A stretch of DNA of 64,000 nt from Escherichia coli (GTDB lineage Bacteria; Pseudomonadota; Gammaproteobacteria; Enterobacterales; Enterobacteriaceae). The notes below the pieces were generated by a model that was not told the origin of the DNA, searched no databases, and was given only the letters and a program-made list of their open reading frames with translations. Position numbers and translations under genes: made by a program. Positions 29,414 to 31,851 of the stretch are shown in pieces. Numbering within the stretch: the first letter of the stretch is position 1; every line of letters begins with the position of its first letter. The stretch is taken from assembly GCF_003334305.1 (NCBI RefSeq), contig NZ_QOWS01000004.1. The stretch is one strand, 5' to 3'.

Positions 29414-29445
29414 TCTCCGCGCCTTTCAGCGCGGAGATTTCTTTC
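29414..29445 (+). terminator. Intrinsic terminator after ghxQ
   Basis: Stem TCTCCGCGC / GCGCGGAGA followed by TTTCTTTC; T-tract overlaps the ygfS stop codon. Confidence 0.7.
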
Positions 29446-29932
29446 ACAGAGGATTCTCACCGCTGGCAACAATACGCTGCTGGCGGACTCGCCTGAGTTC
29501 TCTTTCAGTAAGCAACTGCAGCGCCTGTGTTGGGCAAGATTCAACGCAGGCAGGCCCCTCTTCCCGCTGTTCACAGAGATCGCATTTCACAATTTGTTGT
29601 CGGGTATCCCCCGGCAACGACTGAATGGTGATCATTCCAAACGGGCACGCACTGACGCAACTCTGACAGCCAATACAACGGGCAGAATTGGTCTGCACCA
29701 CCTGCTCGCCCATCGTCAGCGCCCCCACGGGGCAAGCGCCAACACAAGGGGCGTTTTCACACTGATGGCACATCACCGGCGCACTGATGCTGTCCAGTCG
29801 CTGTACCTTCAGCCGGGGTAAAAAGACATCGGCATTCAACTCCTGTTCTGAAGGGTGAGCGACCACACAGGCTACTTCACAAGTACGGCAGCCAATACAG
29901 TCAGCCGGATTAACGATAATTAACGATTTCAT
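29444..29932 (-). CDS. ygfS: 4Fe-4S ferredoxin-type protein
   Basis: About 162 aa; multiple CxxCxxCxxxCP motifs ([37 protein letters not shown]). Confidence 0.88.
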
Positions 29933-31851
29933 CACGATGCCTTCGTATCAAACAGAGTTAACATATCGCGCGCCGCCTGCCTTCCTGCGGCCATTGCAGT
30001 GACAACCAGATCCGCGCCATGAACTGCATCCCCACCAGCAAAGACTTTTTTCAGATGCGTCTGGGTAGGTAAATACCCGACGTCACCGGTTTGAATCAGG
30101 CCCCATTTATCGAGTTTAATTCCGCTGCCCTGCAACCACGGCATGGCATGCGCCTGGAAACCAAAGGCCATAATCAGAACATCGGCGGGCAATTCAAACT
30201 CTGAACCCGCTACCGGACGAGGACGACGGCGACCATCCGGCCCCGGCTCACCCATGGCGGTACGAATCAGGCCCACCGCAGTTAAACGCCCATCTTCGTC
30301 ACAAGCGATATATTGCGGTTGAACATTGAACTGAAACTCGACACCTTCCTCGCACGCATTAACCACCTCTTTGCGCGAGCCCGGCATACTGACTTCATCA
30401 CGACGATACGCGCAGGTCACGCTGGCAGCATTGAGGCGAATGGAAGTCCGCAAACAATCCATTGTCGTATCGCCACCGCCCAATACCACGACTCGCTTAC
30501 CTTCCACGTCCGTCAGCGGATACTCTTCAGACTCCGGCAATCCCATGAGCTGGCGGGTATGGGCAGTCAGGAACGGTAGAGCCTGAATGACACCGGGTGC
30601 ATCTTCATGCGGCAGATCTGCTCGCATCATCCCGTAAGTCCCCACGCCGATGAAAACTGCATCATATTCAGAAGTTAAATCGCTAAAGGTAATATCGCGG
30701 CCAATTTCACAGTTAAGATGAAAGTCGATTCCCATTGCGGTGAATATCTCTCGCCGCTGGCTTAATACCGTTTTATCGAGTTTGAAAGGAGGAATGCCAA
30801 AAGTCAGCATACCGCCAATTTCTGGATGGCGATCAAAGACATCAACCTGAACTCCCGCGCGCGCCAGAATATCAGCACACCCTAACCCTGCTGGCCCAGC
30901 GCCAATCACCGCCACTTTTTCGCTACGGGGAACAACTTTGCTGACATCGGGACGCCAGCCCATCGCCAGCGCGGTATCGGTGATGTAGCGTTCCAGATTA
31001 CCGATAGAGACTGCGCCAGAGTGATCTTTCAAAGTACATGCGCCTTCACAAAGACGGTCCTGTGGGCATACCCTGCCGCAGATTTCTGGTAAGGAACTGG
31101 TCTGGTGGCAAAGTTCTGCCGCTTCAATAATCTTTCCTTCCTGTACCAGACGGATGTAATCCGGAATAGCGTTATGCAGCGGGCAATGCCAGTTGCAGTT
31201 AGCTTTTTCGGCACAATAAACACAGCGGTCACTCTCATAAGTCGCTTGCAGTGGATCCAGCCCGCAATAGATTTCGCCAAAGTGGGTTTTCCGTTCACTC
31301 GCTGAAATTTTATCTGCGCCTTTACGCGAGTTAACGGGGAGCAACGCTGCACTGCGAGATGGCTGAGCGTCTGATGACGCTTTTCCTGCTGCCGTTTTGC
31401 GCTGGCGAGCCACCTTTATCCACTGTAACCCTTTATCGTCCATCAGTCGTAACGCCTGTGTTGGGCAGACTTCAATACAGGCTTGCGTGCCGGAACTGCG
31501 CTGGTTACAAAGGTCGCATTTCTGCGCAATCGTATCGACCATCTCAACGACGCCAAAGGGGCAAGCGATTGCGCATCTTTTACAGCCAATACATTTTTGC
31601 TCGTCCAGTTGTACGCTATCGGACTGGAAAGTCAGAGCATTAACCGGACAAGCCGTAACACAAGGGGCATTGTTGCAGTGATGGCAGGCCACCGGATTCG
31701 CAGCCTGGCCTTTCCCTACAACGTGGATACGCGGTCGAAAGTCACTGTGACTCAGCGGCCAGTTTTCTTGATTGTGTGCCACCGCACAGGCAATTTCACA
31801 AGCATGACAGCCTATACATTCCGCAGCTTCAGCAGCGATAAACTTATTCAT
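29932..31851 (-). CDS. ygfT: Fe-S / FAD-dependent oxidoreductase (GltD-like, AegA paralog-like)
   Basis: N-terminal ferredoxin motifs ([25 protein letters not shown]) plus GltD-like fold ([21 protein letters not shown]); the 639-aa form starts at MNKFIAAE; track ORF extends to 31866. Confidence 0.85.

Follow-up and report, generated by a model that had tools for sequence, protein, structure and literature searches.

The ygfT-ygfS gene pair (positions 29444-31851) in a 64,000-nucleotide stretch of Escherichia coli DNA (assembly GCF_003334305.1, contig NZ_QOWS01000004.1; hereafter the window, meaning the whole stretch) very probably encodes an electron-transfer module that is linked to formate through formate dehydrogenase H (FDH-H, FdhF) and serves the degradation of urate. 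The preferred model, to which a probability of about 0.55 was assigned, is a soluble cytoplasmic module coupling formate oxidation by FdhF to the 2,8-dioxopurine pathway of urate degradation by way of NADPH, while the choice of NADP+ as the acceptor of the ygfT-ygfS chain, taken on its own, was considered an even bet. The identification itself is already known, as the hypothesis has been published and the genes already bear names referring to formate-linked urate use; what this analysis newly contributes is comparative data, in the form of gene neighbourhoods, that strengthen the link to formate and FDH-H. A sequence-only reading of the window had taken the pair for an electron module of the neighbouring purine hydroxylases rather than a standalone enzyme. 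The connection with formate or NAD(P)H and the non-standalone character were supported by the protein anatomy, by genetics known through secondary citations and by the neighbourhoods in other species, while docking on the hydroxylases found no support, XdhD-YgfM and YgfK being able to run on NAD(P)H without YgfT and YgfS.

YgfT is built entirely from recognizable redox modules (Table 1). It matched the complete NCBIfam equivalog NF009451 (positions 1-639 of 639, 1500.3 bits at a cutoff of 1154), whose name, "formate-dependent uric acid utilization protein", is also the RefSeq product name of the gene, while the scores against the AegA model and TIGR01318 were 946 and 844 bits (cutoff of the latter 483). 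The Pfam domains followed the order Fer4_11, Fer4_20 and Pyr_redox_2, and according to Pfam and the alignment all 639 residues were assigned to iron-sulfur (Fe-S), flavin adenine dinucleotide (FAD) or NADPH modules, with no substrate domain present. The N-terminal 150 residues contained 16 cysteines in four motifs (C12-22, C56-68, C87-97 and C112-129) and are predicted to bind four [4Fe-4S] clusters. The Fer4_20 ligands C210, C213, C219, C223, C262, C268, C272 and E287 were invariant in comparison with AegA and E. coli GltD, indicating a putative site for two [4Fe-4S] clusters of the type known from GltD and DPD. Residues 176-639 were 58% identical to E. coli GltD, and the FAD motif GAGPAG and the NADPH motif GGGDT...CAYRRDE were the same in both. 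With the two-cluster ligands and the FAD and NADPH folds in place, YgfT is, as judged from its sequence, a GltD-like NADPH:Fe-S flavoprotein module, and the fusion of this module to a predicted 16-Cys, four-cluster ferredoxin domain gives it the YgfT/AegA architecture. In an AlphaFold2 model built from a 15-sequence alignment (mean pLDDT 70, with 36-65 in the Fe-S domains) the C-terminal 470 residues superposed on NfnI-L, GltS beta and NfnB (Foldseek TMt 0.85-0.86). A pure Fe-S wire would not need an NADPH module; the YgfT chain should therefore begin or end at NADP(H).

YgfS likewise contained exactly 16 cysteines, arranged in the four motifs seen in the first 150 residues of YgfT, and was assigned to Fer4_11 in Pfam. 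Its best NCBIfam matches were the N-termini of AegA (168 bits) and YgfT (140 bits), followed by HydN with 137.1 bits; since neither this score nor the 119.4 bits of the YgfT N-domain reached the cutoff of the HydN equivalog NF007658 (260 bits), both are by profile score paralogues of HydN and not HydN itself. The identity of YgfS was 45% to the YgfT N-domain, 42% to HydN and 40% to HycB, and all 16 cysteine columns were invariant in the alignment of YgfS, the N-domains of YgfT and AegA, HydN, HycB and two YgfS orthologues. The solved structures nearest in sequence to both YgfS and the YgfT N-domain were HycB of E. coli formate hydrogenlyase (FHL; 7z0s_B) and HycB3/HycB4 of the hydrogen-dependent CO2 reductase (HDCR) filament of Thermoanaerobacter (7qv7), all of them recipients of electrons from FdhF-type enzymes. 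By all these features YgfS appears to be a free-standing four-cluster [4Fe-4S] ferredoxin, a copy of the YgfT N-domain. The Pfam, NCBIfam and 16-Cys evidence thus agreed with the domain description in the sequence-only reading (a GltD-like protein with ferredoxin motifs and a poly-ferredoxin), and together the two proteins should carry ten [4Fe-4S] clusters, one FAD and one NADP(H) site. No twin-arginine signal and no hydrophobic segment or membrane helix was present in either sequence, and a periplasmic or membrane location, as in HybA, NrfC and FdnH, was rejected for this reason.

Both genes were recovered as minus-strand open reading frames (ORFs) and as RefSeq genes, whose boundaries coincided exactly with those of the sequence-only reading. 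In the ORF list the ygfT start was extended to an ATG at 31866 and the ygfS start to an in-frame GTG at 29935; a Shine-Dalgarno sequence was present only at the annotated starts, with AAAGGGA ahead of the ygfT ATG at 31851 and GAAGG ahead of the ygfS ATG at 29932. The ygfT stop codon TGA (29934-29932) and the ygfS ATG (29932-29930) are merged into TGATG (junction sequence GTGATGAAA), so the overlap amounts to 1 nt and not to one codon as had been proposed, and would become 4 nt only with the GTG start at 29935. By their co-directional arrangement, predicted translational coupling and conserved adjacency, the two genes form a predicted operon, and they were handled as an operon in PMC3159470 and PMC12623156. 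The convergence with ghxQ was correctly recognized from the sequence: ghxQ (+) stops at 29408 and ygfS ends at 29444, leaving a gap of 35 nt. The hairpin in this gap had folding energies of -18.9 and -20.7 kcal/mol on the two strands (z-scores -5.0 and -4.6) and was followed by a T-run on the plus strand only. The 2408-bp stretch was 100% identical to that of E. coli strain H15 and was present in 5205 of the 5426 complete E. coli genomes. Absence of the region from approximately 4% of the complete genomes, together with truncated YgfT variants in public data (a 394-aa form with 99% identity and 94 member sequences, and a 625-aa form, proteins P0105 and P0004), suggests occasional loss.

Much of the functional framework for the pair comes from published work. 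According to papers citing Iwadate and Kato (2019, J Bacteriol 201:e00573-18), anaerobic urate consumption by E. coli requires formate and involves aegA, ygfT and ygeV; citing papers further state that this formate-requiring degradation depends on FDH-H and needs aegA or ygfT, and that ygfT expression is lowered in a ygeV mutant, with YgeV acting as an activator of ygfT. The effect of a deletion on anaerobic purine metabolism, which the sequence-only reading had put forward as a check, has in effect been seen for ygfT together with aegA, as far as these secondary citations go, while no test of ygfS was found in the literature. Urate strongly induces ygfT and ygfK and only modestly aegA, and the YgeV iModulon includes ygfT together with xdhABC, ygeWXY, hyuA, ygfK, ssnA, ygfM, xdhD and uacT. 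YgfT has been renamed UacF, and the "operon uacF-ygfS" has been called formate-dependent urate oxidoreductase. Pinske (2018) placed YgfS, YgfT and AegA in one group with HydN, YsaA, HycB and HyfA; in the same work HydN and YsaA were proposed to send FDH-H electrons to acceptors other than hydrogen. On the consuming side, XdhD-YgfM converts urate to 2,8-dioxopurine with NADH, YgfK and SsnA reduce and open the latter with NAD(P)H (with NADPH only, according to the Dodd laboratory), and the whole route was reconstituted in 2025 without YgfT or YgfS (PMC12507026; bioRxiv 10.1101/2025.04.24.650524). A biochemical role for YgfT was assigned in none of the pathway papers. Formate boosts growth on urate in Proteobacteria and hardly in other phyla. 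This matches the narrow distribution of the full-length YgfT/AegA architecture, which was found in a single 50%-identity cluster of a representative library of 1.84 billion proteins, the rest being GltD-like with other N-termini.

For the neighbourhood analysis a YgfT/AegA alignment was run against a genome set in which each species is represented once; further contexts of YgfT orthologues were added, and the proteins of the E. coli island and FdhF were mapped onto all loci by tblastn. The hits separated into genuine GltD, matching only residues 187-636 with 57-61% identity, AegA-type (52-56%) and YgfT-type (62-69%) proteins, with the YgfT-type protein of Schmidhempelia at 55%. Outside E. coli, YgfT-type loci were obtained from 16 species. 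In 11 of them ygfS was located directly downstream of ygfT, a nucleobase (NCS2) permease was encoded beside or near ygfT in all cases (divergently in 13 loci, in another nearby arrangement in three), and genes of the urate pathway were present within 10 kb in 12 loci. The pair thus co-occurs with ygfK-ssnA, a molybdenum (Mo) hydroxylase, a nucleobase permease and, often, fdhF. In most of the Enterobacteriaceae ygfTS was directly convergent on ygfK-ssnA, and by this comparison the insertion of xdhD-ygfM, xanQ, guaD and ghxQ between them in E. coli is a local variant.

An FdhF-type gene was present within 10 kb of ygfT in eight of the 16 loci, and two forms could be distinguished. In Klebsiella aerogenes, Salmonella enterica subsp. 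diarizonae, Pluralibacter gergoviae, Serratia silvae and Cedecea neteri it was of the selenocysteine (Sec) type, with an in-frame TGA in CARV*HGPSVAG and 86-93% identity to E. coli FdhF, and the gene order was fdhF, permease and then, on the opposite strand, ygfT and ygfS. In Erwinia oleae, Pantoea sp. BAV 3049 and Candidatus Schmidhempelia bombi, fdhF was of the Cys type and formed the third gene of a ygfT-ygfS-fdhF operon; these proteins were 61-65% identical to E. coli FdhF and scored 892 bits against TIGR01591 (cutoff 666), and such an operon would be, from its gene content, a selenium-independent version of the module. The single fdhF of E. coli itself lies far from ygfT, with mdtP and yjcO on either side. 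The fdhF copy in the Cedecea neteri cluster (locus L006, 5779-7915, minus strand) consisted of two pieces in different frames joining near 7319-7341, as might result from a frameshift, from decay into a pseudogene or from faulty assembly.

The E. coli paralogue of YgfT, AegA (NCBIfam NF009408), has the same domain order with 55% identity over the full length and has likewise been implicated in the formate-dependent urate phenotype in citing papers. In contrast to ygfT, aegA is not linked to the urate island, being located between narQ and the nudK-side genes, has no ygfS-like partner in E. coli and responds only modestly to urate, and no fdhF was found near any of the approximately 24 AegA-type loci, in contrast to half of the YgfT-type loci; none was found near the approximately 48 GltD loci either. 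A ygfS-like gene was located downstream of AegA-type genes in Brenneria, Pectobacterium and Acerihabitans, in each case outside any urate cluster, and in Pectobacterium this arrangement has been noted independently in the literature. The occurrence of the unit outside urate clusters indicates that it existed before it became associated with the urate island.

In the Mo-hydroxylase genes next to ygfTS another variation was observed. In other Enterobacterales (L004, 3683-6898; L086, 6421-9642; L089, 1881-5096) the enzyme was a fusion of approximately 1070 aa of an XdhA-like (Mo) and an XdhB-like (FAD) part; next came a gene of its own for an XdhC-like 2Fe-2S subunit and then a MocA-like gene. 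The enzyme was only 26-28% identical to E. coli XdhD.

Among known systems, the ferredoxin-like FdhF partners HycB, HydN and YsaA (FHL structures 7z0s and 7z0t) share with YgfS the 16-Cys four-cluster fold, while YgfS lacks the long insertion of HycB and is encoded with a flavoprotein instead of a hydrogenase. In the HDCR of Thermoanaerobacter kivui two HycB-type proteins join an FdhF-type enzyme to a second redox module, an arrangement comparable to YgfS plus the YgfT N-domain, except that the second module is an [FeFe] hydrogenase in HDCR and an NADPH flavoprotein in YgfT. GltD has the same two [4Fe-4S] sites and the same FAD and NADPH motifs but hands its electrons to the adjacently encoded GltB, while YgfT has no GltB-like partner, carries a HycB-like domain at its N-terminus and would, in the direction proposed here (from Fe-S to NADP+), work in reverse to GltD. 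YgfK, the 2,8-dioxopurine reductase, shares the Fer4_20 and Pyr_redox_2 module with YgfT (TIGR03315, 237 bits) and differs by large additional catalytic domains (FMN/DPD-like), of which YgfT has none.

In the preferred model, formate would be oxidized at the Mo/Sec site of FdhF, and the electrons would leave through its [4Fe-4S] cluster into a polyferredoxin wire of the HycB/HydN type, formed by YgfS (four clusters) and/or the YgfT N-domain (four clusters), then pass the two GltD-type clusters of YgfT to FAD and finally reach NADP+. The resulting NADPH (or NADH) would be used by YgfK and, directly or via NADH, by XdhD-YgfM, and YgfS would act, in analogy with HydN, as an accessory adaptor or as an extension of the wire on the FdhF side. 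Three elements of this scheme are inferred from the arrangement: that electrons flow in this direction, that they end on NADP+, and that YgfS is the adaptor docking on FdhF. With approximately -420 mV for formate/CO2 against -320 mV for NADP+/NADPH, formate can drive the reduction of NADP+, while the reduction of urate by NAD(P)H is close to equilibrium; formate-driven NADPH would help to pull the two near-equilibrium reductions. Since XdhD-YgfM and YgfK each possess an FAD/NAD(P)H entry module and need no electron donor besides NAD(P)H, an indirect supply of NADPH is the simplest model. In its most complete and only tentative form, FdhF, YgfS and YgfT (with AegA as a back-up) may constitute an uncharacterized soluble formate:NADP+ oxidoreductase of enterobacteria, that is, a second FDH-H complex besides formate hydrogenlyase, dedicated to the 2,8-dioxopurine pathway, with YgfS as the adaptor docking on FdhF and the ygfT-ygfS-fdhF operon of Erwinia and Pantoea as the minimal self-contained form.

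Several observations weigh against the NADPH model. E. coli has other sources of NADPH, so that the need for formate is not explained by this model alone. A bacterial two-hybrid test of AegA with FdhF was negative, with AegA binding HycB, HydN and YsaA, and deletion of aegA did not lower the dye-reducing activity of FDH-H (Pinske, 2018). A biochemical assay of either YgfT or YgfS was not found in the literature, in which the primary genetics is known through citing papers, and the Fe-S domains of the YgfT AlphaFold2 model were too poor to judge the cluster-to-cluster geometry. Half of the YgfT-type loci had no fdhF within 10 kb, and ygfS was missing from five of the 16, showing that it is not essential to the module. 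The five are those of Enterobacter sp. Bisph1, two Arsenophonus species, Morganella and Atlantibacter. The absence was clean in Enterobacter sp. Bisph1, where 88 bp separated ygfT from ssnA and the rest of the cluster was intact (L008, 11917-12005), and in Atlantibacter, where 56 bp separated ygfT from ghxQ in an otherwise E. coli-like gene order (L092, 11944-12000). In Morganella psychrotolerans ygfT was split into two overlapping ORFs of 546 and 207 aa (L027, 5900-7871), with neither ygfS nor urate-pathway genes nearby, and is possibly a decaying copy.

The main rival explanation assumes that the Fe-S chain of YgfS and YgfT docks on XdhD-YgfM and/or YgfK and injects low-potential electrons, coming either from formate through FDH-H or from NADPH through the YgfT FAD, thereby bypassing free pyridine nucleotides. 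The reduction of urate probably demands a reductant stronger than NAD(P)H, the YgfK step has been noted as thermodynamically unfavourable, and the clostridial XdhAC accepts neither NADH nor NADPH, so that Fe-S donors to such enzymes do exist; moreover, ygfTS immediately adjoined ygfK-ssnA and the Mo-hydroxylase operon in 12 of the 16 loci. Such a wire is nevertheless unlikely, since XdhD-YgfM and YgfK have FAD/NAD(P)H modules of their own and were active in vitro with NADH or NADPH alone, and the fully conserved NADPH/FAD module of YgfT would be redundant with formate as the donor. Iwadate and Kato have been cited as allowing a transfer "directly to uric acid", but the same cited genetics has the unlinked AegA, with 55% identity, substituting for YgfT, which is more easily explained by a diffusible product than by a docking surface.

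An Nfn-like bifurcation or confurcation, in which the YgfT FAD would distribute electrons over NADPH and the Fe-S chain or merge those coming from both, was considered improbable; one form of it would join electrons from formate with electrons from NAD(P)H so as to attain the potential of urate or 2,8-dioxopurine reduction. NfnAB/NfnI, the NADH-dependent ferredoxin:NADP+ oxidoreductase, is the top fold match of YgfT and joins NADPH to low-potential Fe-S carriers by a GltD-like subunit; the closest folds included the bifurcating NfnI-L (5jca_L) and NfnB (4ylf_B), the matches included GltD-like domains fused to formate-dehydrogenase-like domains, StnC (8oh5_C) and NfnABC (9bov_A), and bifurcation has been raised for AegA in a review by Vanoni. 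However, YgfT resembles the non-bifurcating GltD (58% identity) far more than NfnB (approximately 36%), and no NfnA-type partner (with [2Fe-2S], FAD and NAD site) was encoded in any of the 17 loci examined.

That YgfT itself is the reductase, binding and reducing urate or an intermediate at its flavin site with YgfS as its ferredoxin, has a very low probability. The older "oxidoreductase" annotation and the cited suggestion of a direct transfer from AegA/YgfT to uric acid speak for it, but YgfT consists of Fe-S, FAD and NADPH modules only, the homologous flavin in GltD, DPD and Nfn only exchanges hydride with NADPH, and both reductive steps are already assigned to XdhD-YgfM and YgfK in a pathway that was reconstituted without YgfT. 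Finally, a role unrelated to purines, either as the legacy "selenate reductase" or as a GltD paralogue of nitrogen assimilation placed near the purine genes by coincidence, is suggested by the RefSeq name of ygfK ("putative selenate reductase subunit") and by the YgfT matches to models of the glutamate synthase small subunit but is largely refuted, as selenate is neither required by YgfK nor stimulatory to it according to the literature, no gltB-like gene was found flanking ygfT (the true gltB-gltD pair is at a separate locus, L040), the synteny with urate genes is conserved across genera and ygfT is induced by urate.

The features located in the window, together with the Cys-type fdhF genes of other species, are collected in Table 1.

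Table 1. Positions of the ygfT-ygfS features, of the ygfT/uacT control region and of related genes
Feature	Position	Strand	Basis and remarks
ygfT (= uacF), coding sequence	29932..31851	-	639 aa; ORF, RefSeq coding sequence and NCBIfam NF009451
YgfT residues 1-150, HycB/HydN-type domain	31402..31851	-	motif count, alignment, PDB matches
YgfT residues 151-187, linker between modules	31291..31401	-	poor conservation; AlphaFold2 pLDDT <50 for 148-176
YgfT residues 188-298, Fer4_20	30958..31290	-	Pfam PF14691, E 2.5e-36
YgfT residues 312-623, FAD and NADPH domains	29983..30918	-	Pfam Pyr_redox_2
ygfS, coding sequence	29444..29932	-	162 aa; ORF and RefSeq
Coupling junction GAAGGCATCGTGATG	29930..29945	-	ygfS Shine-Dalgarno inside the 3' end of ygfT; TGA and ATG with one common base
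G+C hairpin between the 3' ends of ghxQ and ygfS	29414..29437	both	9-10 bp; terminator scan and folding z-scores
Divergent control region ygfT/uacT	31852..32286		435 bp; blocks conserved in nine species (alignment)
TTGCAT block TTATTGCATCGC	31894-31905	-	~47 nt before the ygfT ATG; TTGCA invariant in nine species
TTTGA..TCGCAAAA block	31945-31963 (TCGCAAAA at 31945-31952)	-	upstream of ygfT; conserved
TATC-N7-GATA-like block	32078-32092		TCTCATATTGATATT in E. coli
CRP-like site	32153-32168		TGTGAAATAAATCACG in other species, TGCGGAGGCAATCACA in E. coli; better match in other species
Sigma54-type -24/-12 element TGGCACTCCACGAGCAT facing uacT	32203-32219	+	GG-N10-GC; 68 nt upstream of the uacT ATG
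uacT (ygfU)	32287..33735	+	urate/H+ symporter; divergent from ygfT across 435 bp; RefSeq
ygfK-ssnA-ygfM-xdhD	16980..25106	+	RefSeq; two reductive steps and first ring opening of the 2,8-dioxopurine pathway
Cys-type fdhF in other species	L086 12456-14606; L088 12452-14602; L035 2199-4340		CARVCH in place of CARVUH

The products of ygfK-ssnA-ygfM-xdhD are proposed as the consumers of the reducing power delivered by ygfTS. In the sigma54-type element facing uacT, both TGGCA and GCAT were invariant across nine species, and this candidate element suggests a direct control of the uacT permease by YgeV and sigma54. In Klebsiella aerogenes and Salmonella enterica subsp. diarizonae the sigma54-type promoter of the permease would also drive fdhF, which follows the permease. 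The CRP-like site may be linked to the glucose repression of urate degradation (PMC12507026). On the ygfT side, the TTGCAT block resembles a -12 element but was not called as a sigma54 promoter of ygfT, the -24 position being CG or TG and not GG in all nine species. Consensus searches for sigma54 and FNR sites gave counts at chance level, with no minus-strand site upstream of ygfT, and a sigma70 scan of the 435-bp intergenic region found no promoter. A PurR box, GGGCAAGCGATTGCGC, has been assigned to "ygfT-ygfS" in a ChIP-chip study of PurR (PMC3159470); it was located at 31559-31574 (+), approximately 280 bp inside the ygfT coding sequence and outside the promoter region, as a single weak site. 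Sigma54-like candidate elements were also present approximately 75 nt upstream of ygfK (TGGTGCGATTGTTGCT, 16892-16907, +) and approximately 90 nt upstream of ygeW (TGGCACACTTATTGTT, 7256-7271, +); both fit the YgeV iModulon, and the count of the pattern over the whole window was at chance level.

The window, a piece of the E. coli chromosome, contains the whole purine/urate island at 1406-36093, with xdhABC, ygeV, ygeWXY, hyuA, yqeA, yqeBC, mocA, ygfK, ssnA, ygfM, xdhD, xanQ, guaD, ghxQ, ygfST and uacT, which is followed by idi and lysS; RefSeq additionally places two tiny genes, yqfG and yqfH, after uacT.

The reductive urate pathway of gut bacteria affects the urate of the host and is being engineered into probiotics against gout (PMC12507026). 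Both reductive steps leave little thermodynamic margin, and the flux may therefore be limited by the supply of electrons; should ygfTS together with FDH-H provide this supply under physiological conditions, co-expression of ygfTS together with the provision of formate would be an obvious lever, while the Cys-type ygfT-ygfS-fdhF operons would be convenient for heterologous tests. In that case a definite task unrelated to hydrogen production would also emerge for FDH-H, a matter raised by the work on HydN and YsaA.

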